A DNA stretch of 37,691 nucleotides from Chiloscyllium plagiosum (GCF_004010195.1 NC_057753.1:328223-365913); one strand, 5' to 3'; counted from the first letter of the stretch, positions 2,340-37,365 are shown. Program-made: numbers and translations. The notes: generated from the sequence alone by a model not told the origin.

Positions 2340-3080
2340 GACCTGCAGCCTCTGCAGCGCTCACTTCCGCCTGGTAAAACCACGAGCCAGCGGCTGGGGC
2401 AGGGGGGGGGTGGGGTGCACGACTGCGCAGACGCCGGCTCGGTCACGTGCCCAGCGCCGGCCGCCGGCCGCGTTACCCCGGCAACCCGCCGCCATCTTGC
2501 GGGCGGCCCCCTGGACCAGCGCGCGCCTGCGCCGCCATCTCGCTCCCCGGGCCCCCGCCGGCGGCGAGAGACGCCTGTCACGGTCAGCTTTCGGCGCTCA
2601 GAGGCCGCGGGGGAGGGGCCGCCCTCGTCTCAACACACAGACCACAGACGGACAGAGAGGTTTTCCGAGGAGGAGGAGGACAGGATCGCGCTCGGGCCGC
2701 AAGATGGCGGCCGGTTGCCACGGCAACGGGGCCGATTTCTTTTTTCGCATCGTTCGCGTCGCGGAAGGAAAAGCCACCCATTGCCGTTTACCTCGGAGGA
2801 GCTCCCCTCCCTCCCACAGACGTCCGCTGACCCGCCGGGGTTTTTGTTTTTAATTTCCGTTTTCCCCGCCGGTCCCTCTGCGTCTCTCCAAACCGTCGCC
2901 GGCTCCGCGAGGCGGCCGGAAGAGGCGGGGACTCCACCCGCTGTGGGCGGGGGCGGGGGCTGGAGAGTGACAGCCGCCTGCGCCAATGGGACACCCGGGT
3001 ACCGTCCCGCCTGTCACAATGGGAGCTGCGACCAATCAGGGAGCGTCCTCCGCGGGGCGGGACAGCGGCCGGAAAGACTC
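2340..3080. promoter_or_regulatory. CpG island promoter 1 (probably bidirectional)
   Basis: Very GC/CpG rich. E-box gtcacgtg 2442, RFX 2472-2485 and 2714-2727, YY1 2490-2499(-) and 2700-2709(+), NRF1 2523-2532, ETS-like ccggaag ~2916, GC boxes ~2945 and ~3053, CCAAT ~2983 and ~3032; minus-strand donors at 2364 (GAA|GTGAGC) and ~2791 (GAG|GTAAAC). Confidence 0.85.
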
Positions 3081-3089
3081 AGGGTTGTT

Positions 3090-4135
3090 GTTGTATCATA
3101 GCATCCCCACAGTCTGGGAACAAGCCATTTGACCCAACAGGATCTGGATGAGAGCGGGGCTGGAAAAGCACAGCAGGTCAGGCTGCATCCGTGGAGCAGG
3201 AAAATTGACGTTTCGGGCAAAAGGAATAGAAGCAGGGTACCTGCACGGTGGAGAGATAAATGAGAGGGGGAAGTGGTGAAGGTAGTATAGAGTACAATGG
3301 GTGAATGGGGGTGGGGATAGAGGTGATAGGTCAGAGGGGAGGATGGAGTGGATAGGTGGAAAGGAAGATAGGCAGTGGGGCAGGTCATGGGGACAGTGCC
3401 GAGCTGGAAACCTTCGCATAAACCAAATCATCCGCCGACATTTCCGTCACCTCCAAACGGACCCCACCACCAGGGATATATTTCCCTCCCCATCCCTTTC
3501 CACCTTCCGCAAAGGCCATTCCCTCAGTGACTACCTGGTCAGGTCTATGCCACCCTCCCATCCTGGCACCTTCCCCTGTCACTGCAGGAATTGCAAAACC
3601 TGCGCCCACACCTCCTCCCTCACCTCCGTCCAAGGCCCCAAAAGAGCCTTCCACATCCATCAAAATTTTACCTGCACATCCACCAATATCACTTATTGCA
3701 TCCATTGCTCCCGATGCAATCTCTTACACTGGGAGACTGGATGCCTCCTAACAGAGCGCTTTAGTGAACATCTCTGGGACACCCACACCAATCTACCACA
3801 CCGGTCTGTGGCCCAACATTTCAACCCCCCTCCCATGGAGGTCCTGGGCCTCCTTCACCATCGCTTCCTCACCACCCGACGCCTGGAGAAAGAACGCCTC
3901 ATCTTCCGCCTCAGAACACTTCAACCCCAGGGCATCAATGTGGACTTCACCAGTTTCCTCATTTCCCCTTCCCCCACCTCACCCCAGTTCCAAACCAGCC
4001 ACATTTGACCCAACAAGTCGAAACTGACCCTATGAAGAGTATCCCACCCAAACTCGTTCACCTGCCCTGTTTCTCTGCATTTACCCCTGACCAACACACC
4101 TCTGAGCACATGGCCAATTCACCCTAAACTGCACT
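3090..4135 (-). mobile_element. HE1-type SINE 3' part, interrupted by a Penelope insertion
   Basis: 3095-3139 and 4002-4135 join into a SINE tail (cccacagtctgggaacaagccatttgacccaaca|agtcg...catggccaattcaccctaa). Confidence 0.65.
3140..4001 (+). mobile_element. Penelope-like element: inverted terminal segment (3140-~3405) plus GIY-YIG endonuclease region
   Basis: Translation ...FPCHCRNCKTCAHT...FTCTSTNITYCIHCSRCNLLH(W)ETG...ERFSEH...LGLLH...RRLEKERLIFRLRTLQPQGIN is a PLE GIY-YIG domain; perfect 14-bp TSD catttgacccaaca at 3126-3139 and 4002-4015. Confidence 0.9.
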
Positions 4136-4667
4136 GTTAACTCAAAGAAAATCTCGGAGCACATAAAGTAAGTTTTAATATTAAAATTTTTATTTCGATT
4201 AAGCCAGCTAGAGATCAATAGTCTATAGTCCAGAGTTTCAATCAAGATATCCCTGTTTGGGTTAAAGAGAGATCTCGGATTTTTAGCAGCATATTTTATA
4301 GCCCTTATGTGCATAACAATTTTATGTTTTTTCATTTCCCACAATATAATGTTTCCACCTCTAATTAATAGTCCCATAATTAAAATTAGATGATTAATAT
4401 ATTTTAGTCTTGTTCTCACAGATCAAAGGCAAGGCTATTGTTTTAAAATGTTTCTTCATCTTTTTGCGTCAAAGCAGATAAAGCTAAACATTTATCAGTA
4501 TTGTATTCCTTTGCTTTGTCTGGGAAAGCAGACCTACAAAGTTATGCCAAGAGTCTCACATTCTTTATTTCAATCTCATGGTCACTGACTTCCATTTTAA
4601 ACTCGTCAGACAAATTATTATTGCGAGATGCAGATTTAAAATGGAGGCTTTCAATCGTTGATTCCCC

Positions 4668-4770
4668 AATCTTTGGATTGAGAGTGGAAACTGGAGCACC
4701 CAGAGGAAACCCCACACAGACATGGGGGTGGAGAATGTGCAAATTCCATACAGGCAGTCACCCAAGAGCA
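4668..4770 (-). mobile_element. HE1-type SINE V-domain fragment
   Basis: ggaaactggagcacccagaggaaaccccacacagacatggg...gaatgtgcaaattccataca. Confidence 0.75.
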
Positions 4771-4984
4771 GAATTGATCACTGTCCTGAATATTTCATAT
4801 TTTAAGGTAGCATATGTACAGGGCCCGAGTATCAGAGCTGTGTGGAAGAGTCAGAGGGATGACTGCCTTACACACGAGAATCTCTAGATTCCGTGGGGAG
4901 CCAACCAGAAATGGGCTGCATCTGAGTTTAACCAGTTGTCTGCAAGCAAAATGCAAACTATTTGGAGAATCTCAATTGTGATTT

Positions 4985-5216
4985 GAACCAAACCATCTAC
5001 AAGATTCAAGAGCAGCTTTTCCCCCCCGTTTATCAGAGTTTTGAACGGACCTCTGTAACGTTAATGTTGATCTCTCTCACTGCACCTTCTCGGCGGCTGT
5101 AACACTGTTTCCTGATGCCCATTCTTACCCTGTTTAAAGTATGATCTACCTGTAACAGCACATAAGGCAACAGGTTTCTCTGAACCTCATATGCATGACA
5201 GGGAGTAAATCAAATC
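4985..5216 (+). mobile_element. Rex1/Babar LINE 3' end
   Basis: agattcaagagcagctttt...ttatcagagttttgaacggacc corresponds to the RFK.SFFP..IR.LN C-terminus, followed by UTR and (aaatc) tail. Confidence 0.6.
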
Positions 5217-5520
5217 CTGAAATCTATACAGTGTGGAAGGAGGGCATTTGGCCTATCAAGTCCATACAGCCCCTCTGAAGAGCACCCCATCCCTATAACC
5301 CTGCATTTCCCATGGCTAAACCACTAAGCCTTCACACCCTTCTACATAACGTGCACTTTTAGAATGGCCAAGCCACCTGACCTGCACATCTTTGGACTGT
5401 GGGAGAAAACCAGAGCAGCTGGTGGGAATCTACACAGTTGCTCAAGGCTGGAATCAAACCCAGGTCCTTGGTGCCGTGAGGCAGCAGTCAGTGCTGACAA
5501 CTGAGCATGGTAGCTCAGTG
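5215..5520 (-). mobile_element. HE1-type SINE (degenerate)
   Basis: cacatctttggactgtgggag...ggctggaatcaaacccaggtcc...gtgaggcagcagt. Confidence 0.75.
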
Positions 5521-6370
5521 GTAAGGCCTTATTGTCTGCTGACTTTGATGTGTAGCCGTTTGAAGTAAAGATGGTGTTGGAGAATGGGAGCACACACCTT
5601 CATGTCTGTGGTGTTGGAAATGTGCATCAGGAAAGAAATGGTGAGCAATGTCCTCACCTGGAAAGGATTGAGCAGGTCCCCAAATAGAGGCAAGAACACA
5701 CACCCAGAGAGGGCCTCAGGGCTGGATAGGGTCTCAAGGAGGGTGTGGGGAAGGATTTCAGAGTAAATACTATGGCGACAAGAGCAGGTCAGAGGCTGGG
5801 AATCCTGCAGCAAGTAGCTCACCTCCTGACTCTCCCCTAGTAACTGGTCTCAGCATTAAACTAGAATTCAGCAGTGTGATGGAATACTCCCCAATCGCTT
5901 GGATGGGTGCAGCTCCAACAACAGCTCGACACCATCTTTGTCAGTGCAGACCACCCCCCCATCCCAAACTTGATTAGCACACAACACTCAGTCCCTCTAC
6001 CACTGACACACAGTGGCAGCAGCATTTGGCATCTGCAAAAACTCCAGCAGCAATTCTCCAAAGTTCCTACCACAGTACCTGCTACCCTTACCATCTTGGA
6101 AGGATGAGGGGCAGCAGATGCAAGGGGGAACACCATCTCCTGCAAGTTCCCCTCTGAGCCCCCCAACACACAGACATGGCATCCCAGTCGGGAATGAAAT
6201 GAGCCATTCCTTCAGTGTTGCTGGGGTCAGAATCCTGGGACTGCCTCTCTAGCAGAACACTTTGGGGTGTCCAGACATAAAATTGGAGTGGGGGTGAGTG
6301 CAGTGGTTGTAGAAGGCAGCTCACCACCATATGCCCGACAGGGTGGCACACTGGCTCACAGCGTCAGGGA
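5355..6370 (+). repeat. Local segmental duplication, copy 1 (SINE piece + unique core + LINE piece)
   Basis: Colinear with 10333-11140; core 5534-5769 vs 10526-10747 differs by 5 substitutions and one 14-bp indel. Confidence 0.9.
5765..6335 (+). mobile_element. Non-LTR LINE 3' fragment (CR1/L2 group, Zenon-like; same family as 17098-19440)
   Basis: Encodes RAGQRLGILQQVAHLL / MEYSP.AWMGAAPT; ends in aaggcagctcaccacc like 19347-19362. Clade name tentative. Confidence 0.65.
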
Positions 6371-6465
6371 CCCTCGTTTGATTCCAGTCACAGGCGACTG
6401 TCCGTGTGGAGTTTGCACATTCTCAGTGCGTCCCCGTGGTTTTCTCCGGGTGCTTTGGTTCCAAG
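6340..6465 (+). mobile_element. HE1-type SINE 5' fragment
   Basis: ctcacagcgtcagggaccc..ttgattcc...gtgtggagtttgcacattctc. Confidence 0.75.
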
Positions 6466-6889
6466 TCTAACAAAAGATTAGGGTATTAGTCAGCCCTTAC
6501 CAATCATCTCTCGGACCTGAACAGGATGCAGAATATCAAACATTGTCCCCAGTTAGAATGTACTTGTTAACTATCTTTTAACTGGGCCATTATCTCTTTA
6601 AGAAACTAACAGACAAAACACCACTTATGTGAAGTTGCATGAATGAAACTCACACGGTCAAATAGTAAACAAATCTCACAATCCAGCTGCAGTAATCAGT
6701 AAAACATCCTTTATTTTTTTTATTAAGTGCAGATATAATTTCTAACTTATTTAGAGCATGTTGACTTTCCATTTTTTAACTAACATTTCCCAACTTAAAA
6801 GACAATAGGACTGACACCTCTTAATGATGAAAACAGTCCAGACAGACACTTATAATCTGACCAGGAGTAGCACCCAGCATTAAACACAT

Positions 6890-9715
6890 ACAGTCACAGA
6901 GACAGAGATGTACAGCATGGAAACAGACCCTTCGGTCCAACCCGTCCATGCCGACCAGGTTCCCAACCCAAACTAGTCCCACCTGCCAGCACCCGGCCCA
7001 TATCCCTCCAAACCCTTCCTATTCATATACCCATCCAAATGCCTCTTAAATGTTGCAATTGTACCAGCCTCCACCACATCCTCTGAAAGCTCATTCCATA
7101 CACATACCACCCTCTGNNNNNNNNNNNNNNNNNNNNNNNNNNNNNNNNNNNNNNNNNNNNNNNNNNNNNNNNNNNNNNNNNNNNNNNNNNNNNNNNNNNN
7201 NNNNNNNNNNNNNNNNNNNNNNNNNNNNNNNNNNNNNNNNNNNNNNNNNNNNNNNNNNNNNNNNNNNNNNNNNNNNNNNNNNNNNNNNNNNNNNNNNNNN
7301 NNNNNNNNNNNNNNNNNNNNNNNNNNNNNNNNNNNNNNNNNNNNNNNNNNNNNNNNNNNNNNNNNNNNNNNNNNNNNNNNNNNNNNNNNNNNNNNNNNNN
7401 NNNNNNNNNNNNNNNNNNNNNNNNNNNNNNNNTTACCATTAAGTGTGTAAGTCCTGCTAAGATTTGCTTTCCCAAAATGCAACACCTCGCATTTATCTGA
7501 ATTAAACTCCATCTGCCACTTCTCAGCCCACTAGCCTATCTGATCAAATTCTGTTGTAATCTGAGGTAACCCTCTTCGCTGTCCACTACACATCAAATTT
7601 TGGTGTCATCTGTAAACTTACTAACTGTACCTCTTATGCTTACATCCAAATCATTTATATAAACGATTAAAAGTAGTGGACCCAGCATCGATCCTTGTGG
7701 CACTCCACTGGTCACAGGCCTCCAGTCTGAAAAACAACCCTCCACCACCACCCTCTGTCTTCTATCTTTGAGCCAGTTCTGTATACAAATGGCTAGTTCT
7801 CCCTGTATTCCATGAGATCTAACCTTGCTAATCAGTCTCTCATGGGGAACCTTGTCAAAAGCATTACTGAAGTTCATATAGATCACATCTACCGCTCTGC
7901 CCTCATCAATCCTCTTCGTTACTTCATCAAAAACTCAATCAAGTTTGTGAGACATGATTTCCCACGCACAAAGCCATGTTGACTATCCCAAATCAAACCT
8001 TGCCTTTCCAAATACCCCTACATCCTGTCCCTCAGGATTCTCTCCAACAACTTGCCCACGACCGATGTCAGGCTCACTGGTCTATAGTTCGCTGGCTTGT
8101 CCTTACCACCCTTCTTAAACAGTGGCACCATGTTTGCCAACCTCCAGTCTTCCGGCACCTCACCTGTGACTATCGATGATAAAAATATCTCAGCAAGAGG
8201 CCCAGCAATCACGACTTTAGCTTCCCACAGAGTTCTAGGGTACACCCAATCAGGTCCTGGGGATATGTCCACTTTTATATGTTTCAAGACATCCAGCACT
8301 TCCTCCTCTGTAATATGGACATTTTGCGAGATGTCACCATCTATTTCCTTAGAGTCTGTATCTTCCATGTCCTTTTCCACATCTGCTCCCAATCAGCTTT
8401 TGAAAGTTCTTACATAATACCTTCAAAATTGGCCTTTCTCCAATTTAGAATTTTAATTTTTAGATCTGGTCTATCCTTATCCATCACTATTTTAAATCTA
8501 ATAGAATTATGGTCGCTGGCCCCAAAGTGCTCCCCCACTGACACCTCAGTCACCTGCCCTGCCTTATTTCCCACTGAAACAGAAAATTATCTTGTTCACA
8601 CTTAACAAATTCCTCTCCATCTAAACCTTTAACAGCATGGCAGTCCCAGTCTATGTTTGGAAAGTTAAAATCCCCTACCATAACCACGCTATCATTCTTA
8701 CAGATAGCGGAGATTGCCTTACAAATTTGTTTCTTAATTTCCCTCTGACTATTAGGGGGTCTATAATACAATTCCAATAAGGTGATCATCTTTCTTACTT
8801 CTCAGTTCCACCCAAATAACTTCACCAGATGTATTTCCGGGAATATCCTCCCTCAGCACAGCTGTAATGCTATCCTTTATCAAAAATGCCACTCCCCCTC
8901 CTCTCTTGCCTCCCTTTCTGTCCTTCCTGTAGCATTTGTATCCTGGAACATTAAGCTGCCAGTCCTGCCCATCCCTGTGCCGTGTTTCTGNNNNNNNNNN
9001 NNNNNNNNNNNNNNNNNNNNNNNNNNNNNNNNNNNNNNNNNNNNNNNNNNNNNNNNNNNNNNNTCCTACTTTGTCCCTGCCTGCCCTGACTGTTTGACTC
9101 ACTTCTGTTCTCAACTGTACCAGTCTCAGATTGATCTCTTTCCTCACAATCTCCCTGGGTCCCACTCCCCCACCTTACTAGTTTAAATCCTTCCAAGCAG
9201 GTCCAGCAAATTTCCCTGCTAGTATATTAGTCACTTTCCAATTCAGGTGCAATCCGCCCTTCTTGTCCAGGTCACTTCTTCCCCAGAAGAGATTCCAATG
9301 ATCCAAAAATGTGAATCCTTCTCCCATACACCAGCTCCTCAGCCATGCATTCATCTGCTCTATCCTCCTATTCCTGCCCTCGCTAGCTCGTAGCACTGGG
9401 AGTAATCCAGATATTACTACTCTCGAGGACCTCCTTTTAAAATTCCTGTCTAACTCTCTGTAATCTACCTTTAGACTCTCAATCTTTTCCCTTCCTATGT
9501 CGTTGATTCCAATGTGGACAATGACCTCCTGCTGGCCCCTCTCCCCAGTGAGAGCATTCTGCACCCTCTCGGAGATATCCTTGATCCTGGCACTGGAAAA
9601 GCATCATACCATTCTGATTTATCGCTGCTGGCCACAGAAACGTCTGTCTGTACTTCAGACCGGAGAGTCCCCTAATGCAATTGATCTCTTGGAACCCGAC
9701 GTACCCCTCATTGAA
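6890..9715 (-). mobile_element. CR1 LINE with ORF1 esterase, APE endonuclease, RT and 3' UTR; internally deleted and frameshifted
   Basis: ORF1 SGNH esterase (VHIGINDI...VVISGLLPV...GLHLN, 9178-9564); APE (RKDRKGGKRGGGVA, YYRPPNS, MVGDFNFPNIDW); RT (NYRPVSLTSVVGK, FDKVPH, GVPQGS, KFTDDTKI); 3' UTR at 6890-7115; two N-gaps inside. Confidence 0.95.
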
Positions 9716-10099
9716 ATGTTTTAACCCATCTCCTGACTCCCAGGACAGAAGCCCCTTAAACCTTTGTGTACTGTAGTTAAAACAATGTAACACCATAGTA
9801 ATGGAATTTTAATGCTTATAACAACTGTGTATCAAAAGGGGAGTGTAAGAACTGCATTTCAGGATTTATTGCCACTTCAAACTTGTGCTACTTGCAGTTT
9901 CTGAATAAAGAGATCAATTTTACCACTCACCAATTTTGGTCGTTATTTGAACACAATCCCACAGGCTGTTGAATGATTTTATTCATCTGAACTGAAATAC
10001 AGAGACTCCAGAAGAGGAGGAATCATCCAGGTAATACTGTGTTAAAGAAACAGAATAAAAACAGTTTTGTTGCCAAGTTACCACGGTATTGACAGATTT

Positions 10100-10225
10100 T
10101 TAGGGTTAAGGAGAGCAGACAGGAACATGGCATGGAGTCTGAGGGGAGGTCAGTTGTGATTGAATCAAATGGCGGAGCAGGCTTGAGGGGCTGAATGGTC
10201 TCCTCCTGTTTCTAGTTCTAATGTA
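10100..10225 (+). mobile_element. CR1 3' UTR remnant
   Basis: aatggcggagcaggcttgaggggctgaatgg.ctcctcctg tail. Confidence 0.6.
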
Positions 10226-10332
10226 ATATAGAAGGTGAGGTATTTGAGTGTGATTGTGATATTAAATCAGACTCCATGGGCAGAGGGAGAGGGCATATAA
10301 AAGCTAGCCTACCTATCCTTGGACATACTGGG

Positions 10333-11140
10333 CAATTTTAGAATGGCCTATCCACCTAACATGCATGTCTTTGGACTGTGGGAGGAAACCAGAGCAGCTG
10401 GAGGGATAACACGCAAAATCCACACAGATAGTCGCTCGAGGCTGGAATTGAACCCGGGTCCCTAGTGCCGTAAGGCAGCAGTACTAACTACTGAGCTACC
10501 ATGCTCAGTTAAGTGAGGGCTCCTGGTCTGCTGACTTTGATGTGTAGCCGTTTGAAGTAACGATGGTGTTGGAGAATGGGAGCACACACCTTCATGTCTG
10601 TGGTGTTGGAAAGAAATGGTGAGCAATGTCCTCACCTGGAAGGGATTGAGCAGGTCCCCAAATAGAGGGAAGAACACACACCCAGATGGGGCCTCAGGGC
10701 TGGATAGGGTCTCAAGGAGGGTGTGGGGAAGGATTTCAGAGTAAATATTAAGGCTGCAAGAGCAGGTCAGAGGCTGGGAATCCTTCAGCAAGTAGCTCAC
10801 CTCCTGACTCTTCCCCCAGTAGCCTGTCTCATCATGGACAAACTACAATTCAGGAGTGCGATGGAATACTCCCCACTTGCGTGGATGGGTGCAGCTCCAA
10901 CAACACTCAAGAAAATTGACACCATCTGTCTCAAAGCAGCTCTCCCCCACCATCCCAATCCCAAACTTGATGTGAGCCATTCCTTCAGTATTGCAGGGGT
11001 CAAAATCCTTGGACTCCCTCCCTAGCAGGACACTGTGTGGGGTGTCCCTCCACCAAATTGGAGGGGACAGTGGTAGCAGTGCAGTGGTTCAAGAAGTGGT
11101 TCAAGAGCACCACCGCATGCTCAACAGGCCGGCATAGTGG
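10333..11140 (+). repeat. Local segmental duplication, copy 2
   Basis: See 5355-6370; both SINE pieces share the variant aaaccagagcagctgg; copy 2 lacks ~5975-6200. Confidence 0.9.
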
Positions 11141-11144
11141 GTCA

Positions 11145-11912
11145 GCATGGACGAGTTAGACCTTTTGGTCTAACTCATTTGTGCTGACCAGATATCCTCA
11201 ATTAATCTAGTCCCATTTGCCAGCATTTGGCCCATACCCATCAAGATACCTTTTAAAATGTTCTAATCGTACCACCTCCTCTGGCAGCTCAATCCAAACA
11301 CGCACCACCCTCTGTGTGAAAAAGTTGATCCTCAGGTCCCTTTTAAACCTTTCCCCGCTCACCTTAAACCTAAGCCCTCTAGTTCTGGCAGCCTGGCGTG
11401 CAGTCAGCCTGAGCCCCCCAGCCTCGAGGTGATTCCAGAGTGGTGAATCCCAGCACCATCTGGAGTCACATGGGGTGGACTGGGTTTGAAGGAATGCTGT
11501 TCTGATCTTTTTATATCTCTATATTTTAATTTAGTCTATAATGTTAGACTTTTTATTTCTTTATTTGTCTAAAATTTTTTCTTAAGAATTTGTACTGAAG
11601 AATCTGCACTTGGGTGCCGTAAGTGGCAACTTTTAAACTCGTGCGAGTACGTGTGACAATAAAGCTAATTCTAATTTTCCTTTCCCTTTCATCCTCAACT
11701 TAGGTGCTGCAGCTTTAGGCTCCCCCAGCCTGGGAAAAAGACAGTGGCTATTCACCCTATTCATGCCCCTCGTGATTTTATAAACCTCTATCAGGTCATC
11801 CCTCAGCCTCTGACATTTCAGGGAAAAACAGCCCCAGCCTGTTCAGCCTCTCCCTTTAGCTCAAACCCTCCAACCCTGGCAACATCCTTGAAAATCTTTT
11901 CTGCACCTTGCC
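11145..11912 (-). mobile_element. CR1 3' fragment, interrupted at ~11388-11717
   Basis: gtcccatttgccagcatttggccc...caccctctgtgtgaaaaagttg...ttataaacctcta...ggcaacatccttg. Confidence 0.85.
11388..11717 (+). mobile_element. Unclassified repeat ending in gtgacaataaagctaattctaatt
   Basis: Interrupts the CR1 copy; its tail resembles 26920-27053 (gtacacgtgagaataaaatctcaatctaa). Family not identified. Confidence 0.45.
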
Positions 11913-14945: not shown

Positions 14946-16413
14946 AAATATTGACTGGGAACACTATAGTATGAGTATAATAGATGGATCAATTTTTGTC
15001 CAGTGTGTGCAGGAGGGCTTCCTGACACAATATGTAGACAGGCTGACAAGGGGCGAAGCCACATTAGATTGGGTACACTGGGTAATGAGCCCGGCCAGGT
15101 GTTAGACTTGGAAATTGGTGAACACTTTGGTGATAGCGATCACAATTCTGTTATGTTTACTTTAGTGATAGAAAGGGGTAGGTGTATACCACTGGACAAG
15201 AATTATAGCTGGGGGAAAGGCAAATACGATGTGATTAGGCAAGATTTAGGAAGTACAGGATGGGGAAGGAAACTGCAGGGGATGGGCACATTAGAAATGT
15301 GGAGCTTATTCAAGGAAAAGCTCCCGAGTGTCCTAGATAAGTATGTACCTGTCAGGCAGGGAGGAAGCTGTAGAGCACGGGAGCCGTGGTTTACGAATGA
15401 AGTGGAATCTCTGGTGAAGAGGAAGAAGGAGACTTGTGATAGGATGAGATGTGAAGGCTCAGTTAGGGCGCTTGAGGGTTACAAGGTAGCCAGGAAAGAC
15501 CTAAAGAGAGAGCTCAGAAGAGCCAGGAGGAGACATGAGAAGTTGTTGGCGGATAGGATCAGGGTAAACCCTAAGGATTTCTGTAGGTATTTAAGGGATA
15601 AAAGAATGACGCGAGTAAGATTAGGCACAATCAAGGATAGTAGTGGGAAGTTGTGTGTGGAGTCAGAGGAGATAGGGGAAGCACTAAATGAATATTTTTC
15701 ATCTGTATTCACTCTAGAAAATGACAATGTTGTCGAGGAGAGTACTGAGATACAGGCTACTAGACGGGGTGGGATTGAGGTTCACAAGGAAGAGGTATTA
15801 GACATCCTGCAGAGCATGAAAATAGATAAGTCCCCTGGGCCAGATGGGATTTATCCTAGGATCCTCTGGGAAGCCAGGGAGGAGATTGCCGAGCCTTTGA
15901 CATTGATTTTTAAATTGTCATTGTCTACAGGTATAGTGCCAGAAGACTGGAGGATAGCAAATGTGGTTCCCCTGTTCAAGAAGGGGAGTAGAGACAACCC
16001 TGGTAATTATAGACCAGTAAGCCTTACTTCTGTTGTTGGTAAAGTGTTGGAAAAGGTTATAAGAGATAGGATTTATAATCATCTAGAAAAGAATAATTTG
16101 ATTAGGGATAGTCAGCACGGTTTTGTGAAAGGTAAGTCGTGCCTCACAAACCTTATTGAGTTCTTTGAGAAGGTGACCAAACAGGTAGATGAGAGTAAAC
16201 TGGTGGTTGTAGTGTACATGGATTTCAGCAAAGCGTTCGATAAGGTTCCCCACAGTAGGCTATTGTACAAAATGCGGAGGAATGGGATTGTGGGAGATAT
16301 AGCAGTTTGGATCAGCAATTGGCTTGCTGAAAGGAGACAGAGGGTGGTGGTTGATGAGAAATGTTCATCCTGGAGTCCAGTTACCAGTGGTGTACCGCAA
16401 GGGTCGGTGTTGG
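14946..16413 (+). mobile_element. Relatively young CR1 ORF2 (end of APE, linker, RT to GVPQGSVL), cut by an N-gap
   Basis: Frame open from ~15060 to the gap: GEHFGDSDHN, KSPGPDGIYPR, NYRPVSLTSVVGK, QHGFVKGKSCLTNLIEFF, YMDFSKAFDKVPH. Confidence 0.95.
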
Positions 16414-25940: not shown

Positions 25941-25990
25941 GGAAAAAAATGTAGGTGATAAACATTACTCTTTCTTCTCAATAAACCACA

Positions 25991-26130
25991 CCATTGCCAT
26001 AGGAACAGGTCACCATCATGTAGGCCAGAGGCTTCAGTCAGGACACATGCCCCACCATGTTGATTGATGGGCGGGGCTTCAGGGTCAGCAGTTCCCAACT
26101 TTGGTCATGAACCCTGGGAGGCACTCCTCA
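25991..26130 (-). promoter_or_regulatory. CpG-decayed paralog of the promoter module
   Basis: Reverse complement gaccaaag...gctgaccctgaagccccgccca...gggcatgtgt...acatgatggtgacctgttcctatggcaatgg aligns with 36692-36826 and with 2694-2729 (25/36 in the YY1-RFX part). Confidence 0.65.
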
Positions 26131-26184
26131 TTTCCAATTCAGTACATTCCTCACTCTGCTCCTTGACACAGATACATACAATAG

Positions 26185-26660: not shown

Positions 26661-27221
26661 CTTTCTGTAAAAGGACATCGCATAGTTAAGATAGGGTGCA
26701 ATGGGGAATGACGAATGCAGTTAAAGCACAGGCCAGTCCTGATCCCACTAAGAGGACAAGAGAGGGCCTTAATGGTTTCCCCTCCATGTGCTTGTTGAAC
26801 TTTTTAATTCATTCCTTTATTTTCCTAGTTTTAACTAGGAAAGACTTTAATGCAAACCATTACCTATTTCTTTACTTATCTATTATTCTGAAAAGCAATG
26901 CTTAACTTGTTAACTCTTGTTTCTTAGTACCTTGTACCTAAGCATTAGATACCTGAGATAGCACCATGTGTGGCGACACTGTACACTTTTCAATGCACTC
27001 CCATACTTCTGCTCTTGTGTACACGTGAGAATAAAATCTCAATCTAAAATCTATGGCCTGGTTCACATGCAGCAAATGGCATTTGAATGGCCAGGGTTTG
27101 CTGTCCCATTAAATTGTCACTTCATTGCCATCGCTTTTGGCACAGTATGGAATGAAAAGAATGAGAAAACTGGGGTGTGTGTGTGTGCCCGCGTGTGTGT
27201 GAAAGTGAACCCAGGTTGACA

Positions 27222-27372
27222 TAAAGATGTTCCTTCCTGGGCTCTGGCACCAGCATTGGAGGACAGCTGACCCTGAAGCCCAGCCCACCAATTGTCCCTG
27301 GAATACTGGCGGAGGTGCATGCGACCCAGGCCCCCCACAGCCGCAATGACTGAACCAGAAGAGGCGGGAACA
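27222..27372 (+). promoter_or_regulatory. CpG-decayed paralog of the promoter module, upstream of the ZNF pseudogene
   Basis: agatgttccttcctggg...gaccctgaagcccagcccaccaattgtccctggaa...ggtgcatgcg...ccgcaa vs 36666-36800 agatgctccctcctggg...gaccatgaagccccgcccacccattgtccctggaa...ggcgcatgcg...ccgcaa. Confidence 0.7.
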
Positions 27373-27556
27373 ACTGCAAGGGGTTTATTTATGGTGGGAT
27401 GTCCAGGCAAAGAGGGTGGTGGAAAATGCATCAATTCTGTGATGGACCAAGGGTGAAGATAGTTTGGGTTGGATGGGATGTGGCTGATTTAAAATCAAGC
27501 AAACCTCACGAATTGGTTGGTTGGGGGAGGATGGCACATCCAGTGATGAGGGGGCC

Positions 27557-28045: not shown

Positions 28046-28162
28046 AGACTCCTGAGGAATGGGGCAAGGCAACACCCTCAATGAGGAGGGAGGTTGTCAG
28101 AGTGGGTTCATAAGGGTTGGGGGAAACTTCTGCAGGAACTCAACTTGTTTTTTTTAAAACAG

Positions 28163-28985
28163 GGTCAGAGAGGGGGAGAATTTCAGGTGGTAAGCTGAAA
28201 CAAACATTTGACTGACTCGATCCATCAGAACCTGCTCATCCAACCTCCTGACAAACCAAAACCACCACACCAATGAGAGAACCCTTGCTTCTAACGATCT
28301 GATGTACGAGTGGTAACTTTTAAAGGTTGAAAGAGCTGGGCAGCATGGTGGCTCACCGTGCCAGGGACCCGGGTTCGATTCCAGCCTCGGGTGACTGTGT
28401 GGAGTTTGCACATTCTGCCCATATCTGCGTGGATTTCCTATAGCTTCCTCCCACAGTCCAAAGATGTGCAGCTTAGGTGGATTACTGGTGCTAAATTGCC
28501 CGTAATGTCCAGGGATATGCAGGCTAGCTGGATTAGCCATGGGAAATATATAGTCATAGGGATATGGTGTGGGGGAGGTGGTCAGTGTGGAGTCGCTGGG
28601 CCAAAAGGCCGGTTTCCACCCTATAGGGATTCTAGGATTCTCTGACTTCACACTGAGGAGGTTGTCATTCAGGTTCTCTCGCTGTGTGACGAGATTTCAA
28701 CAGTTGTTCAACCTGCTGTGCCACGGGATTACACTCAGACAGAAGCTGTTCCCCTGCTCCCATTGTGGGAAGGGCTCAGTCAGTTCGCTGCTCCATGCAT
28801 ACACCAGCGGGTTCACAAGAACAGGATCTGCATCATGCTGTTGTTGAGTCCATTCGTCACATCCAGAGCAGAACCCTGCCTCATTCTGATAGCTGGCTCT
28901 GACTCTGCTTCTGTTAATGAGCTCAATAAGTGACCTGGAAATCAATAATCTGGCTCTGTTAAATAAATCAACTGTGTTTGACGAT
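28163..28985 (+). pseudogene. C2H2 zinc-finger pseudogene (terminal exon remnant, SINE inserted)
   Basis: Acceptor ttgttttttttaaaacag| ending at 28162. 28650-28820 reads with frameshifts as HT.E..FRFSRCVTRFQQLFNLLCH.....QKLFPCSHCGKG/SQFAAPCIHQRVH, i.e. two damaged C2H2 fingers with linker. AATAAA at 28962. Confidence 0.7.
28338..28640 (+). mobile_element. HE1-type V-SINE
   Basis: ccagggacccgggttcgattcc...gtgtggagtttgcacattc...cctcccacagtccaaagatgtgcag...gggattctaggattct. Confidence 0.88.
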
Positions 28986-30038: not shown

Positions 30039-30044
30039 GGGCGC

Positions 30045-30980
30045 ACCGGGTCCAGAAAACGAATCATGGGAACTCAGGGACGAGGAACTTCAGATATGTG
30101 GATGGATTGGAGAAGCTGGTGGGGATCGCCTTGGAGAAGATTTGGTTAAGGAGGTCTGGATGAAGCAGACGGAGAGAAACTGCTCCCAGCAGTGAAGCTG
30201 AGGGTAATGCTCCGAGGTGATTGACAAAAGGAGGCGGTGTGAGAGATAGCCGGGAATGGAATGCACGGTCAGGGAGGGTGTTCGAGGGCAATACAACCAT
30301 GGCTTTCCCAAGAGGACTGGAGAGGTATCTGAAGAAGATACATGCGCAGGACCCATGAGCTCAAGGCAGGGGAGTAGGGTTGCTCCAGGAGCGCCAGCAA
30401 TGAATACAATGGGCCAAACATTTGCTAGTACAATCTTAGGATGACGGGTGATGACATAATGGTTGAGTGACTAGGTTATTCTGCTATTGGCACGATATTG
30501 TGAAACTTGAAAGGGTTTATAAAAGATTTACAAGGATGTTGCCAGGGTTGTAGGGTTTGAGCTCTTGGGAGAAGGCTGAATAGACTAGAATTATTTTCTT
30601 TGCAGCGTCGGAGCCTGAGGTTTATAAAATCATGAGGGGCATAGATAGGGTGAACAGACAAGGTCTTTTTCCCCGCAGGGTGTGGGGGAGTCCAAAACTA
30701 GGGGGCATAGGTTTCAGGTGAGAGGAGCATGATTTAAAAGGGACAATGTTTTCATGCAGAAGGTAGAGTGTGTATGGAGTGAGCTGCCAGAGGAAGTGGT
30801 GGAGACAGGTACAAATACACCATTAAAGAGGCATCTGGATGGGTAGATGACTAGGAAGGGTTGGGAGGGATATGGGCCGGGTGCTGGCAAATGGGATGGG
30901 ATTAATTTGGGATATCTGGTCGGCATGAACGAGTTGAACCGAAGGTTCTATTTCCGTGCTGTGCATCTCTATGACTCTAG
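30045..30980 (+). mobile_element. Two CR1 3' fragments (old 30045-30440; younger 30495-30980)
   Basis: RYVDGLEKL-like remnant; ggatgttgccagggttg...WSELPEEVV...ctctatgactcta tail. Confidence 0.75.
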
Positions 30981-30989
30981 TTCTCCGGG

Positions 30990-31226
30990 AGCCCAGGTTA
31001 CTGTTCTGGGTTCACATCCCATGATGGTGAAATTGGAATTCAGTCTACATCTGGAACAAAAGGTTAGCATCAAGGCAACCATATAATTGCTGTTGACTGT
31101 CCTTTTGGGAAAGGAAATCTGTCATCCTTACCCCTGGTGGCCTACATGTGACCCCAGATTCTCAATCACCGCTGGACTCCGAACTGCTCTCCGAAATGGC
31201 CAAGCAAGTTCAAAGGCAATTAGGGA
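30990..31226 (+). mobile_element. Old SINE of a second family (tail shared with the Zenon-like LINE)
   Basis: B-box-like gggttcacatccc; body tccttttgggaaaggaaatctgtcatccttaccc..ggcctacatgtgac aligns with 32985-33045; ends caaaggcaattaggga (cf. 19368-19386). Confidence 0.6.
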
Positions 31227-31594
31227 GAAGATGTCATTAACCTTGAACTGGTCCAGTTAAGCGTGAAAAGTCCCTTTGACCTTGAACAGGTCCATTTGGC
31301 AGTGACCTTTTCCCATGAAGTAGTGTCAACCAAAATGAACACGGACATGTATGTGGGCTGCTGATGCTCAATGCATTTAACATCCAGTGTAAACTTGACC
31401 CAGTTAAGCATAGTTACAACATTCTGTGTGTTCACAATCAGCTCAGCACTGTCACCTTTGAACTGTCACTGGACTAATAATGATGAACCCCGGGCTAATT
31501 GTTCTGTGGACAACTTAGAAACTGCCTGAGAAATTCAGCAGGTGTGGCAGAATCTGTGGAGAGAAAGCAGTTAACTTTGCTTTGTCTCAATAGA

Positions 31595-31754
31595 GTCAAG
31601 ATTAGAGTGGTGCTGGAAAAGCACAGCAGGTCAGGCTTCCTGATGAAGGGCTTTTGTCCGAAACGTCAATTTTCCTGCTCCTTGGATGCTGCCTGACCTG
31701 CCGTGCTTTTCCAGCCCCACTCTAATCTCCAGCATCTGCAGTACCCACTCCCGC
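31595..31754. mobile_element. 160-bp Penelope terminal insertion (hairpin)
   Basis: 38-bp inverted arms 31599-31636 / 31691-31728 (2 mismatches); perfect 15-bp TSD ctttgtctcaataga at 31580-31594 and 31755-31769. Confidence 0.88.
31636..31672 (+). ncRNA. Minimal type I hammerhead ribozyme core (PLE-type)
   Basis: CUGAUGA-A-GGGC UUUU GUCC-GAAAC-GUC; stem I poorly paired. Confidence 0.55.
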
Positions 31755-31924
31755 CTTTGTCTCAATAGATGCTGCCAAACCTACCGAATTTTTCCAGCAA
31801 TTTGTGTTTTTCGTTTTAGATCTTCAGAACCTGCAGTTTTGTTTTATTTTAATGTTCTGTGGAAACAAATCCTGGCAGATGGTGAAATCTGAAATCAATA
31901 AAATCCGGGAACTAAAAAGCAAGC

Positions 31925-32585
31925 CTATTAAGACCATAAGAGAGAGGTGCAGAGTTAGGCTATTCTGCCCAAAGAGCAGAATTAGGCTATTCTGCTCCAC
32001 CATTCAATCATGACTGATTTGTTTCTCAACCCTATTCTCCTGTCTTCTCAGTGTAACCCTTAATCTCCTTACAAATCAAGAACCTATGTATCTGTCTTAA
32101 ATGCCCTCAAAGAGTTGGCCTCCACAGCCCTCTGCAGCAACGAGTTCTACAGAGTCACCACCCTCTGGCTGAAGAAATTCCTCCGTATCGGAGTTTTAAA
32201 GGGTTGTCCCTTCGCTCTGAGGTTGTGGCCAACTCCAGTTCTTGGTCTCTCCTAAGAGGGCATTCACATTCTTCGTGCCCACTCCATCCAGGCCTCTCAT
32301 CCTTCTAAACTCCAGCAAGTACAGACCCAGAGTCCTCAACTGCTCCTCCCTTCATTCCCAAGATCATTCTTGTAAACCTCCTCTGGACATCCTCCAATGT
32401 TAACCCATCCTCCCTTCGATACAGGGTCCAAAACTGCTCACAATTTTACCAAATGAGATCTGACCAGAGCCTTGTACTTGCTGAGGCTGTACATTCCTGC
32501 TGCTGTATTCTAGCCATCTTGAAATCTATGGTAACACTGCATTTGCAGTCCTAACTGCCAACTGAACCTGCATGTTAACCTTAAA
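31925..32585 (-). mobile_element. CR1 3' fragment (same type as 13196-14512)
   Basis: agaccataag tail, tcaccaccctctggctgaagaaatt, tgcatttgc..tcctaactgccaactgaacctgcatgttaacc. Confidence 0.85.
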
Positions 32586-32596
32586 AGGGACTAGTT

Positions 32597-32872
32597 TATT
32601 AGATTAGACAGCTTAGTGTGGAAACAAGCCCACACCGACCGTCTGAAGAGCAACCCACCCAGACCCATTCCCCTACATCTAACACTACGGGCAGTTTAGC
32701 ATGGCCAACTCACCTAAGCTGCACATTTTTGGGAGGAAACCGGAGCACCCGGAGGGAACCCACGCAGACACGGGAGAATGTGCAAACTCCACACAGACGG
32801 TTGCCCGAGGCTGGAATTGAACCCGGGTCTCTGGCGCTGTGAGGCAGCAGTGCTAACCACTGTGCCACCCAT
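32597..32872 (-). mobile_element. HE1-type V-SINE
   Basis: V-domain and tRNA head in reverse orientation. Confidence 0.9.
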
Positions 32873-32934
32873 AGTTTGGGTACATTGTTGGCGTGGACTG
32901 ATTGGACCAAAAGGTTAGTTTCTATGCTGTATGA

Positions 32935-33135
32935 TTCCATGTAACCACTGCTGATTATCATAAAGACACATCTGGTTCAGTGATGTCCTTTTGGGAAGTA
33001 GATTGACTGTCCTTACCCTGACTGGCCTAGCTGTGATTCCAGATCCACAGTGATGTGGTTGACTCTTAACTGCTCTTTGGGTAATAAGTACTGGCCCAAT
33101 GCGCGGCACCCACATCCCATGGATGAATTTAAAAA
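32935..33135 (+). mobile_element. Old SINE of the second family, 3' part
   Basis: catctggttcagtgatgtcctttt...ggttgactcttaactgc...aataagtactggccc...cacatcccatggatgaat. Confidence 0.6.
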
Positions 33136-33194
33136 GAACAGTGATCTTTGTTCTTAATTCAGACACTGGTAATTAATTCATTTTGCAAAAACAA

Positions 33195-34840
33195 ACTTTA
33201 GATCTTGCGGTACAGGTTCATACTCCCTTGAACGTGGAGTTGCAGTTAGACAGGTTGTGAAGGTGACATTGGGACGCTTGCCTGTATTGGTCAGTGCACC
33301 GAGTATAGGTGTTGGGAGGTCATGTTGCAGCTGAGAGGCCACTTTTGGAATAATGCATTCAGTTCTGGTCTCCCTGCTATAGGAAAGATGTTGTTAAACA
33401 TGAAAGGGTGCAGAAAGGATTTACAAGGATGTTGCTGGGGTTGGAGGGTTTGAGATATAGGGAGAGGATCATCAGAGGCTGAGGGGTGACCCAAAAGAGG
33501 TTTGTAAAATCACGAGGGGCATGGATAGGATGGACAGACAAGGTCTTTTCCCTGGGGTGTGAGAGCCCAGAACTAGAGGGCATAGGTTTAGGGTGAGAGG
33601 GCCAAGATTTAAAAGGGACCTAAGGGGCAACTTTTTCAGGCAGAGGGTGGTGCATGTTTGGAATGAGCTGCCAGATGAAGTGGCATCTGGATAGGGATAT
33701 GAATAGGAAGCATTTAGAGGGATATGGGCCAGGTGCTGGCAAATTGGGCCAACATCAGCCCTGTGCCTAAGAAGGCCCATGCAGCTTGTCTCAATGACTA
33801 CCACCCAGTGGCCCTAACTTCTGTGGTTAAGAAGTGCTTTGAAAGGATGGTCATGGCATTAATCAACTCCAGCCTCCCCACTGCTCTTGACCCATTCCAA
33901 TTTGCCTATCGGACTAACAGATCCATGTCAGATGCCATATCACTTGCCCTTCCCTCCTCCCTAGAACACCTTGACACCAAGAACAGCTATGTAAGAATCC
34001 TGCTCATTGACGACAGTTCAGCCTTCAACACTATTGTCTCCTCAACACTGATTACTAAACTCAGTGATCTTGGACAAAGCCCCACTCTCTGCAACTGGAT
34101 CCTCAGTTTCCTGATCCACAGGCCATAATCAGTAAAGACTGGGGACAATATTCCATCCTCATTAACACTCAACACTGGAGCCCCTCAGGGGTGCGTACTC
34201 AGCCCCCTACTGCGTATAACCAGACTAATACCGTCGGTGACATCACCATAGCCGGTTGAATCTCAGATGGCGACGAAACAGACTACAGACGGGAGGTGGA
34301 AAACCTGGAAAAATGGTGCACTGAGAACAACCTCGTTCTTAACGCCGGCAAAACCAAGGAACTCATTATTGACTTTCGGCGGCATGTTACTCATGCCCCC
34401 CACACACTAACAGCACAGAGGTGGAACAAGTGGACAGTGTCAAGCTCCTGGGAGTGGTCATCCACAACAAGCTTTCTTGGACTCTTCATGTGGACGTACT
34501 GGATACAAAGGCCCAACAATGTCTCTTCTTCCTCAGGCACCTGAGGAAATTTGGCACGGTGGCGAATATCCTTACCAACTTTTATAGATGCGCCATCGAG
34601 AGCATTCTGTCTGGATGTATCACTACCTGGTATGGCAACTGTACCACTCAAGATCAGAGACGGTTACAGAGAGTGGTGAACTTGGCCCGGACAATCACAA
34701 AGGCCAATCTCCCATCTATAGAATCCATCTACCAGGCCCGCTGTCAAGGAATTCATTCAATAATTTAGGCTATCTGGTCAGCATGGATGAGTTGGACCGA
34801 AGATTCTGTTTCCGTGCTGTACAACTCCATGACTCTATCT
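33195..34840 (+). mobile_element. CR1 3' fragment split in its 3' UTR by a Rex1 piece
   Basis: ...ggtgctggcaaattgg|...|taatttaggctatctggtcagcatggatgagttggaccga...gactctat. Confidence 0.85.
33748..34751 (+). mobile_element. Rex1/Babar LINE RT fragment
   Basis: [81 protein letters not shown] are Rex1 RT signatures. Confidence 0.92.
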
Positions 34841-35218
34841 ATCCTATATTCACCTTTAGGTCCAAAGTTTCCCATCTGTGGTCTCAAATGTACCACTTGT
34901 TAAAACCTCCACCTTGAAAAGTGCTAACTTATTCATCATCAGTTCGCACTGGCTTATGTGAGAGGTACAGTGAGAGCTCCATTGGCCACAGTGAACAAAG
35001 GACTCATGGTGGGGAATGAGAATCGGCATCATTCGGTTTTTACCCTCAATTTTTGTCCGAATGACTCTTGTACATTGGCAGTTGAGTATGACTGTTCCTG
35101 TCCACGTCCATGTGGCTAGCAAGTGACCACCCCCAAATGAAATTTTTCGATCTGTGGGCCTGAACATCTGTGGTGGGGAAATTGTTGGACTGTATCATCA
35201 AGGATGGAGGGCAACTGA

Positions 35219-35680
35219 TGTGTTGACGCTGTGGCTTTAAGAGGTTAGTTTGTCATGTTGTTTTTGAAGAGAGGTTTTCAGGCAGAGGTGAAGAGCAGTC
35301 TCCCAGACCGACTTCTGTAAACAGCTTGTGCAGCTTTGGTTTTTATTAAGAAGTTGGAACAATAGAAGCAGCCTCAACTCCCACTGAAGCAGGTTCTTTA
35401 GTCTAACTTTCAGCAGTTGCTGTTAAGGTCTTGAAGGAGTGAAAGCTTTTTTGTTCTCTCTCTTGGTGACAGCCAAAAGCTTGGGGGGAGGGGGGCTCTC
35501 TGCCTGCTACAGGAGTTGCAGGTGAGATAATCTATTTTCTGGATTTGCCTTTATCCAAGGGTTTATAGGCTGTTACTATATTAGAACAGTTAATTAGCAT
35601 TTGTTTCCAATAAAGGTAAGTTATTCCAATTCCTTCTTTGTTTTGTTGTACTTTAACTATAGCAGATGAATTTGTGGTGG
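35219..35680 (+). mobile_element. Probable LTR fragment, cut by the Penelope insertion
   Basis: Starts TGTGTTGACGCTGTGGCTTTAAGAG (cf. actttaagag near the start of the 22344 LTR); AATAAA at ~35609; no 3' CA or TSD visible. Confidence 0.45.
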
Positions 35681-36365
35681 AAAATTCACCTGCACCTCCA
35701 CACACATCATTTACTGCATCCGCTGCACCCGATGTGGCCTCCTCTATATTGGGGAGACAGGCNNNNNNNNNNNNNNNNNNNNNNNNNNNNNNNNNNNNNN
35801 NNNNNNNNNNNNNNNNNNNNNNNNNNNNNNNNNNNNNNNNNNNNNNNNNNNNNNNNNNNNNNNNNNNNNNNNNNNNNNNNNNNNNNNNNNNNNNNNNNNN
35901 NNNNNNNNNNNNNNNNNNNNNNNNNNNNNNNNNNNNNNNNNNNNNNNNNNNNNNNNNNNNNNNNNNNNNNNNNNNNNNNNNNNNNNNNNNNNNNNNNNNN
36001 NNNNNNNNNNNNNNNNNNNNNNNNNNNNNNNNNNNNNNNNNNNNNNNNNNNNNNNNNNNNNNNNNNNNNNNNNNNNNNNNNNNNNNNNNNNNNNNNNNNN
36101 NNNNNNNNNNNNNNNNNNNNNNNNNNNNNNNNNNNNNNNNNNNNNNNNNNNNNNNNNNNNNNNNNNNNNNNNNNNNNNNNNNNNNNNNNNNNNNNNNNNN
36201 NNNNNNNNNNNNNNNNNNNNNNNNNNNNNCCTCCTCATTCCTGAAGAAGGGCTTATGCCCGAAACGTCGATTCTCCTGCTCCTCGGATGCTGCCTGACCC
36301 GCTGCGCTTTTCCAGCAACACATTTTCAGCTCTGATCTCCGGCATCCGCAGCCCTCACTTTCTCC
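35681..36365 (+). mobile_element. Penelope-like element 3' part (GIY-YIG plus terminus), with N-gap
   Basis: KFTCTSTHIIYCIRCTRCGLLYIGETG; terminus ...cagctctgatctccggcatccgcagccctcactttctcc. Confidence 0.9.
36236..36273 (+). ncRNA. Minimal type I hammerhead ribozyme core (PLE-type)
   Basis: CUGAAGA-A-GGGC UUAU GCCC-GAAAC-GUC|GAUUC, with palindromic ACGU compatible with a dimeric stem III. Confidence 0.65.
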
Positions 36366-36369
36366 CAGA

Positions 36370-36650
36370 ATGCATTAAAAGTAGTTCTGGGATTTACGTA
36401 TTAATGAACCGAAACCTGCAACCCATTCTAAAAAGATGAAAGACTTAACAGCAATCTGTCCAGTATATGGTTTCAGTTGCAAGACACTGTGATCTTTTGC
36501 TAAAAATTCTGTGTGTTGTATGACCTTGCCCCAGCTGATGAAGGAGCAGCGCTCCGAAATCCAGTACTCCCAATAAACCTGTTGGACTATAACCTGATGC
36601 TGTGTGATTTCTAACTTTGCCCCCACCCCAGTCCAACACTTGCACCTCCA
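36370..36650 (+). mobile_element. Penelope-like terminus, second family
   Basis: Aligns with 1550-2245; hammerhead-like CUGAUGA-A-GGAGC AGC GCUCC-GAAA at 36535-36559. Confidence 0.65.
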
Positions 36651-36659
36651 CTGCCCTTA

Positions 36660-37365
36660 AAACAGAGATGCTCCCTCCTGGGGGACTCTGGGACCAAAGC
36701 TCCACCAGCAGACCATGAAGCCCCGCCCACCCATTGTCCCTGGAACGAGATGATGCCGGGGCTGGCGCATGCGCCCACACATCACCCACGCGTCCCGCAA
36801 GATGGCGGCCGGTTGCTGTAGCAACGAGAGCCGCCAGCCTCACCGCGCGTCGATAAAGCGAGAGCTGGATCTGTACTTGGAATCGGAGAAGCTCCTGCCG
36901 TGTCGTCCCGGTTGCTGCGTATTCCTTTCTTCGGAAATCCCACCCCACCCCTCCTCCACAAACACTGGGGCAAACAAGCGTGACGGCCAGGCGACGAAGC
37001 GGTACGATTAACGGCAGAGCTGGCCCGAACAGGAAGCGGATGTGTCGTCACGCCAATGCCCGCCCCTTCATTCCACCGGGCCGCACGTGACAGGGCTGTG
37101 ATGACGTTAAAGATAGTCAGGACAATCGGGGCGGACACACGGTCCTCCAACCAATAACAGATGCCCAACGGATTATAGACGGATAAATCGGCCAATCGCA
37201 GGTGGGCGCGCTTGTTTCACTCCGACCAATCACACAGCGCAGAGGCTGGAACCCCGCCTTCCCGCCGCCCAGGAGTTGTCGCGCCCTCCGACAATGATTG
37301 ACGGGACTGCCCGCCAATGGGCGGTGCTACAGGGCCGATAGTCTCCCTCCATCCAATCAGAGAAG
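36660..37365. promoter_or_regulatory. CpG island promoter 2
   Basis: GC box 36720, NRF1 36765-36774, YY1 36798-36807, RFX 36812-36825, ETS-like caggaag ~37030, E-box cacgtgac 37084, six CCAAT boxes (37053-37357), minus-strand donor GCG|GTGAGG at 36843. Confidence 0.85.

Follow-up and report, generated by a model that had tools for sequence, protein, structure and literature searches.

In human cells, NF-Y, SP1, and NRF1 activate transcription from sites upstream of the start and can repress it from downstream, and YY1 activates from just downstream of the start and may repress from beyond +50, as described in PMC11269187 and PMC13017510. Such words and the positional rules that go with them are standard vertebrate promoter biology. 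Where spacing and orientation are fixed within less than 20 bp, the arrangement is a composite element with hard syntax in the definition given in PMC13216069. The parts of PMC5690287 and PMC8455134 that bear on the subject served as background only. Here, we describe a stretch of 37,691 nucleotides from the shark Chiloscyllium plagiosum (GCF_004010195.1 NC_057753.1:328223-365913; hereafter the window, with positions counted from its first letter and strands given as + or -), in which predicted YY1 and RFX sites stand at one constant distance in three places, with a predicted NRF1 site ahead of them in two. We find that this stretch of control DNA is copied at least five times in the window.

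Results

The word CAAGATGGCG, followed after 4 nucleotides by a 14-bp X-box, occurs at 2700-2727(+), 2472-2499(-), and 36798-36825(+), which we name copies A, B, and C, respectively. An earlier note on this DNA had listed these three occurrences; all of its coordinates were verified, and local dinucleotide shuffles never produced the pattern (0 of 300). The X-box bound by RFX consists of inverted half-sites of the type GTTGCY..RGYAAC; here, the half-site bases held in common number 10 of 10 in A and C and 9 of 10 in B, and the middle is free. The four bases between CAAGATGGCG and the X-box are GCCG in A, GCGG in B, and GCCG in C. The first two of them belong to the YY1 consensus CAAGATGGCGGC (taken, like the NRF1 consensus GCGCATGCGC, from PMC13017510), which A, B, and C each match at 12 of 12 positions, and the free gap between YY1 word and X-box is therefore 2 bp. 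Thus, the 4-bp spacer of the earlier note is right as a count but not as a free spacer. The YY1 words lie at 2700-2711(+), 2488-2499(-), and 36798-36809(+), and the X-boxes lie at 2714-2727, 2472-2485, and 36812-36825. Copy A is recognizable as this core only, which together with the preceding CCG spans 2697-2727(+); A and C have 22 identical bases in common. In A, B, and C, as well as in a decayed copy D described below, the YY1-2 bp-X-box arrangement keeps one spacing and one orientation within 20 bp.

NRF1-type words at 2523-2532(-) and 36765-36774(+) each lie 22 bp ahead of the G of GCAAGATGG. The word in C matches GCGCATGCGC at 10 of 10 positions and that in B at 9 of 10. Copy A has none, so the three-part NRF1-YY1-RFX module that had been proposed describes B and C but not A. 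Copy B as a whole spans 2472-2546(-) and is inverted relative to A; copy C is the full unit (36650-36831, +), with a GC box at 36722-36728. Judged from their letters, the YY1, RFX, and NRF1 words are predicted binding sites. A second YY1-like word, at 2532-2540(-), abuts the NRF1 word of copy B, and the matching bases in C read GAGATGATG.

Copies A, B, and C lie in the only two CpG-rich stretches of the window, A and B in island 1 and C in island 2. CpG islands are defined by a GC fraction above 0.55, together with a ratio of observed to expected CpG (CpG o/e) exceeding 0.65, across at least about 500 bp. Both stretches have this composition in 500-bp bins (2001-3000: GC, 0.58 to 0.69; CpG o/e, 0.67 to 1.02; 36501-37500: GC, 0.57 to 0.58; CpG o/e, 0.71 to 0.83), and most other bins have a CpG o/e of 0.1 to 0.5. 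The rest of the window is largely repeat debris and gaps, with 1864 bases given as N. Further words had been reported as common to the two islands. The sequence GGA[G/A]CGAGATG is indeed present ahead of both NRF1 words, but its spacing is not fixed (3 bp in B versus 12 bp in C). The 13-mer at 2793 and 36883 is likewise where it had been placed; a match of 12 of 13 at any offset is frequent by chance (53 of 200 shuffles), and one between the downstream regions within 10 bp of an equal X-box offset is rare (1 of 200). The E-box GTCACGTG is present in both islands (2442, +, and 37084, -), but at unrelated positions: its distance to the module is 23 bp in island 1, as against about 260 bp in island 2. 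As evidence of homology we rejected it; both islands carried the word in 6 of 5000 shuffles, but the choice of word was post hoc and the distances are unlike.

A weight matrix built from A, B, and C identified a fourth site at 26020(-) (16.8 bits; shuffled best scores, 95th percentile 13.6, highest 22.2), and self-BLAST returned a further homologue at 27.2 to 27.3 kb (77% over 82 nucleotides; E = 2e-9). These belong to two decayed units, copy D (25976-26149, -) and copy E (27203-27392, +), neither of which was on the list of the earlier note. The alignment of C, D, and E extends for about 180 bp and takes in non-motif DNA. When the motifs were left out and only upstream DNA was aligned, the scores of C-D, C-E, and D-E were each reached by 0 of 1000 shuffles, and in leave-one-out nhmmer searches a profile of any two of the units found the third (E = 3e-12, 6e-16, and 2e-9). 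D is identical to C at 100 of 150 aligned bases, and E is identical to C at 113 of 159. The distance from NRF1 to YY1 is 21 bp in D; in E, the remnant of the NRF1 word lies 18 bp from that of the YY1 word, and the X-box is lost. The downstream flanks of the five copies gave P < 0.05 in 3 of 10 pairs, but these matches were short and of low complexity, and we do not trust them. A possible sixth copy, F (11449-11510, -), is very decayed, partial, and weak: nhmmer gave E values of 0.026 to 1.4 depending on the profile, its alignment to C was equaled by 0 of 500 shuffles, and the D-plus-E profile did not find it. Reading F and D as the 5' part of a repeat with an AT-rich tail gave P = 0.03 for the tails and was inconsistent for C and E.

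The same data bear on whether A, B, and C might be independent gains of housekeeping motifs in GC-rich islands, or an artefact of assembly. YY1, NRF1, and RFX words are frequent in vertebrate promoters, and the flanks of A and B lack significant homology to C, as independent gain would predict. However, the three copies have 15 of 15 bases in common, including three before the YY1 consensus, at an equal gap that no shuffle reproduced (0 of 300), and the existence of D and E proves that at least three units arose by copying, which largely refutes independent gain for C, D, and E. As for an artefact, a single contig from an independent sequencing run (X5, below) spans 2360-2820 with 3 differences in 461 bases (99%), confirming the assembly of A and B. 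We consider both explanations very improbable.

We then compared what the copies have kept. Among A, B, and C, the bases in common are 15 of 15 in CCG plus the YY1 word and 9 to 10 of 10 in the X-box half-sites, as against 0 to 2 of 4 in the middle of the X-box, 5 to 7 of 20 in the spacer, and 7 to 11 of 33 downstream. Pairs of live copies keep 21 to 22 of 22 motif positions, although their flanks agree at only about 30%. In contrast, 17 of 22 motif positions survive in dead copy D, versus 63% of its flank, close to the neutral expectation. The claim that motifs rather than spacer sequence are under selection is thus supported, and the sequences provide good evidence of purifying selection on the motifs of the three island copies. 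The dead copies also differ in CpG content (CpG o/e of 1.02 in A, 1.05 in B, and 0.68 in C versus 0.09 in D and 0.26 in E). The retention of CpG in the island copies is an indirect sign that their chromatin may be open and unmethylated. Of the aligned CpGs of C, D keeps 1 of 10 and E keeps 2 of 9, and 5 and 4, respectively, have changed to TG or CA. Loss of CpG to TG or CA is the pattern expected from methylation, which probably lies behind the decay of D and E.

Selection on spacing, the other half of the claim, did not hold up as well. The 22-bp distance is found only in B and C, a single pair. At saturating divergence, an unselected 22-bp spacer would have kept its length with P = 0.06 to 0.21 and the short gap with P = 0.48 to 0.77, values that depend on a rough indel rate from the 9 gaps in the C-D and C-E alignments. 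Selection on the spacing is suggestive at best, and the constant spacing is probably mostly inherited. Between copies A and B, at 2636, the contig of a relative is 7 bases shorter (13 gap positions in 195 bases), and the A-B distance is therefore not fixed.

About 0.8 kb beyond copy E lies a broken, C2H2-zinc-finger-like exon remnant (28149-28967, +), also absent from the earlier note. It comprises an acceptor-like AG at 28161-28162, a repeat insertion at about 28342-28639, the linker-like word HTEE at 28649, two degenerate fingers 81 nucleotides apart (28668 and 28749), HQRVH in another frame (28802), and AATAAA at 28962. The two fingers are the only hits in the window to 5 of 8 positions of the C2H2 signature, and such a pair arose in 2 of 60 shuffles. 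In an Atlas search with the remnant, the named rows shown were C2H2 clusters in 7 of 7 cases (0.91 to 0.92), below three unnamed rows (0.93 to 0.94). The window contains no intact C2H2 gene, and both genes may run past its ends. Pfam searches of 62 of the 88 stop-free open reading frames (ORFs), those in non-repeated stretches, returned only 2 weak DUF matches below the cutoff; short ORFs from the ATG inside the YY1 words diverge after a few codons and have no Pfam match. The suggestion of a zinc-finger (ZNF) gene cluster is therefore supported without being proved by the degenerate remnant, and not by any intact ZNF gene or Pfam zf-C2H2 match in the window. The remnant is a probable ZNF pseudogene beside the two dead units D and E.

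To place the units relative to transcription, we used four sequencing runs (X1, X5, X9, and X10) mapped to 2110-7100, that is, to island 1 only. X1 is the run of the relative; X5, for which the record does not say whether it is DNA or RNA, was used for copy number and assembly only. Part of island 1 was present in 8 of 20 rows of the run search, from 2 studies, none of them listed as RNA. Of the single-cell polyA runs, X9 had zero depth in the five island bins and X10 had no reads; neither was taken as evidence on expression. In X1, the second record, a contig of 439 nucleotides, matches 2791-2924 alone; its letters beyond the match and the direction of its coordinates are not given. Both ends of the match coincide with recognizable words. 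Read on the minus strand, position 2924 falls on the C of CTCTTCCGG, an ETS word (chance of a match ending on such a start, about 1%), which we take to be a TCT-like start. At the other end, 2791 is the G of the donor GAG/GTAAAC (GT at 2791-2790), the only AG/GTRA donor on either strand of the 835-bp island (chance, about 0.4%).

The simplest reading of this contig is a spliced, leftward exon 1 of 133 nucleotides (2924-2792, -), containing the 13-mer and lying downstream of two CCAAT boxes (2983 and 3032) and three GC boxes (2945, 2951, and 3055) within 2925-3075. Copy A would then probably lie 64 nucleotides into intron 1, in antisense, with copy B farther in, in sense. The minus strand of island 2 has an equal order of parts: six CCAAT boxes, an ETS word (37031-37036), the 13-mer (36883-36895), a donor (G/GTGAG; GT at 36843-36842), and the X-box 18 nucleotides on. 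A leftward exon 1 is accordingly predicted, from sequence only, at 36844-37040(-), with upstream promoter words at 37046-37360 (the six CCAAT boxes, four GC boxes, an E-box, and cyclic AMP response element half-sites). The idea that the module is itself the promoter is thereby called into question, given that the one transcript-like contig would place A and B within the first intron downstream of a CCAAT/GC-box promoter that reads leftward.

That idea can be stated more fully: each unit would be a core promoter on its own strand, with GC box and NRF1 upstream, a start in or near the 22-bp spacer, and YY1 and RFX shortly after it, and with its distances under selection as a grammar of the ZNF family. 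Its order of GC box, NRF1, and YY1 agrees with the human rule, described in PMC11269187, of NRF1 upstream and YY1 downstream. B and C keep exactly 22 bp though their spacers agree at 7 of 20 positions, whereas dead copies D and E have 21 and 18 bp; E faces the zinc-finger-like remnant 0.8 kb downstream; and B faces in the direction of the proposed leftward transcript, for which it could be a second start. Against this stand the single pair at 22 bp, with lengths that descent could maintain (P of 0.06 to 0.21, and 0.5 to 0.8 for the short gap), the missing NRF1 word in copy A, and the position of the CCAAT clusters on the far side of A and C, where the sole transcript-like contig begins and from which it runs in the opposite direction. 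On balance, we regard a core promoter of this kind as unlikely.

We also considered an ancient transposon fragment, namely, a promoter from a long terminal repeat (LTR) or from the 5' end of a long interspersed nuclear element (LINE), of which most copies would have decayed and a few would have been kept after landing in, or seeding, CpG islands. The copies are interspersed and in both orientations, and C, D, and E have diverged about as far as the other repeats of the window. In addition, fixed-distance motif pairs in human are often derived from retrotransposons (described in PMC3431495), and YY1 sites mark the 5' ends of L1 (described in PMC11602158). However, in X5 the depth over the two bins containing B and A (6.12) exactly equals that of a single contig, indicating no family at a likeness of at least 88%, a measure that covers island 1 only and is blind to copies at 70%. 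At the ends of C, D, and E, direct or inverted words are no longer than 4 to 6 bases (a weak test for old copies), and Pfam searches of the adjoining ORFs found neither a reverse transcriptase nor any other domain. The note had named transposon membership among the observations that would overturn its reading; island 1 is not a young, high-copy element (depth of at most 10 versus thousands on repeat bins), and an ancient origin of this sort seems to us doubtful.

Several other features of the window were recorded. One abundant repeat family (1500-2240 and 36330-36650; 78 to 84% alike) has its end at the left margin of each island, in equal orientation, through either shared ancestry or chance. 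Pieces of an abundant element that is presumably Penelope-like lie at 3286-4008(+) and 1-600(-), with depths in the thousands at 3.3 to 4.1 kb and an ORF at 3286 with no Pfam match. Long LINE pieces, which we take to be CR1-like, occupy 7433-9720(-), with an esterase-type (GDSL/SGNH) ORF at 9181-9603(-), and 14970-16409(+), with a reverse transcriptase ORF over the same interval. At 6452-6785, X1 depth was 288 and 146 versus 6.5 and 8 in X5, with a few X9 reads and a minus-strand AATAAA near 6720; this segment could represent the 3' end of a low-copy family that is expressed, or else a repeat that has expanded in the relative. Two stretches about 4979 bp apart (5327-5950 and 10306-10950; 95% over 208 nucleotides and 82% over 101 nucleotides) form a local duplication that is younger than most repeat pairs here. 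A possible 28-nucleotide mini-exon with acceptor-like and donor-like ends was noticed, by eye only, in a non-repeated stretch at 9975-10035(+).

Outside the window, the strict module pattern had 0 matches in metagenome contigs, and a pattern scan of viral contigs gave 0. The loose pattern had 4 matches in metagenome contigs; these have nothing else in common with the unit, look like chance, and were set aside. Rfam returned 0 matches.

Discussion

The account that we favor, and that we hold to be evenly balanced between right and wrong, is of an old regulatory unit that spread with gene 5' ends, was selected for its motifs within the islands, and acts as a promoter-proximal element in intron 1. 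A unit of about 180 bp (GC box, NRF1, YY1, 2 bp, and RFX X-box) would have been duplicated across the region long ago, probably along with 5' ends from a gene family in which C2H2 zinc-finger genes were included. In the CpG-island copies A, B, and C, purifying selection would have preserved the YY1 word and the two RFX half-sites, with NRF1 kept in two of the three, whereas copies D and E, outside the islands, would have been methylated and then decayed neutrally. The live unit would work, in either orientation, from the first intron of leftward promoters with CCAAT boxes, GC boxes, and an ETS word. There, YY1, an RFX dimer, and NRF1 may help to hold the island open and tune or focus initiation, with an effect of either sign. 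The intron 1 position, the binding of the factors, the function, and the link to ZNF genes are the parts of this account that we infer.

Several results weigh against this account. Upstream of the motifs, A and B have no significant homology to C, D, and E (P = 0.06 to 0.9), and downstream, the two islands give no overall alignment (P = 0.68). What remains to support common descent for A and B is thus the core, the part order, and a single 13-mer. The proposal that the copies are paralogous thus stands for C, D, and E, with their alignment of about 180 bp, shuffles, and profile searches, whereas A and B share only the core, and their descent from the same unit is probable rather than observed. 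The identity of C-D and C-E (67 to 71%) is close to that between copies of the window's repeats (median, 73.7%; 168 pairs) and suits an old transposon equally well. The zinc-finger-like remnant has no Pfam zf-C2H2 match, 0 matches in PDB, and 0 of 113 candidates at an E value of 1 or better in a homologue search. The exon 1 reading comes from a single contig of the relative, from a run whose RNA nature is a guess. Finally, it would put the YY1 words at +213 and +425, far past their usual human position just downstream of the start.

A more specific form of the favored account, which we offer as a speculation with little weight behind it, is that YY1 and an RFX dimer form a fixed 2-bp composite, with NRF1 22 bp away, long kept in the first introns of a shark ZNF family and coordinating its expression. 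The unit is real, inherited, and selected for its motifs; a family-specific grammar of spacing is a question that one window cannot settle. With live and dead copies of one unit side by side, the locus is a natural experiment, in which retention is confined to the YY1 word and the RFX half-sites, with drift elsewhere. If the 2-bp arrangement of YY1 and RFX is required, this would be an undescribed composite element of two universal vertebrate factors and would provide a sequence tag with which to locate gene 5' ends in a shark family whose annotation is poor. If it is not required, the unit would be ordinary duplicated promoter DNA of the housekeeping type.

In the open literature, we found no fixed-distance YY1-RFX pair; one may exist in subscription papers or in the supplementary lists of pairs that accompany PMC3431495 and PMC13216069. 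Outside their supplementary tables, the parts of PMC13216069, PMC5514134, PMC2292176, and PMC3431495 that deal with motif pairs contain no such pair. Among described systems, TATA-less CpG-island promoters (PMC11269187 and PMC13017510) use, as presented there, an equal set of words, with CCAAT and GC boxes upstream, ETS near the start, and YY1 downstream. Here, in contrast, YY1 lies 2 bp from an X-box, in both orientations and probably 200 to 425 nucleotides downstream; RFX is not mentioned in the main text of PMC11269187. The FiNZ-ZNF clusters of zebrafish (PMC10547256 and PMC5690287) are likewise a fish C2H2-ZNF family in a repeat-rich region with a common promoter type. That type is described there as having a TATA box (sharp peak) or as TATA-less (broad peak), with no mention of a YY1-RFX unit, and here the link to ZNF genes is only a broken finger remnant. 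The YY1 site in the L1 5' untranslated region, as described in PMC11602158, is also a YY1 word in a copied promoter unit, but the units here lead into no LINE body, and at 88% likeness island 1 has a single copy. As with the NF-Y-USF pairs in MLT1 and the NF-Y-NF-Y pairs in LTR12 described in PMC3431495, invariant spacing would here follow from descent of one unit; unlike those pairs, the units have no identified transposon around them, and the likeness between flanks of the live copies is gone, so that the unit appears both old and selected.

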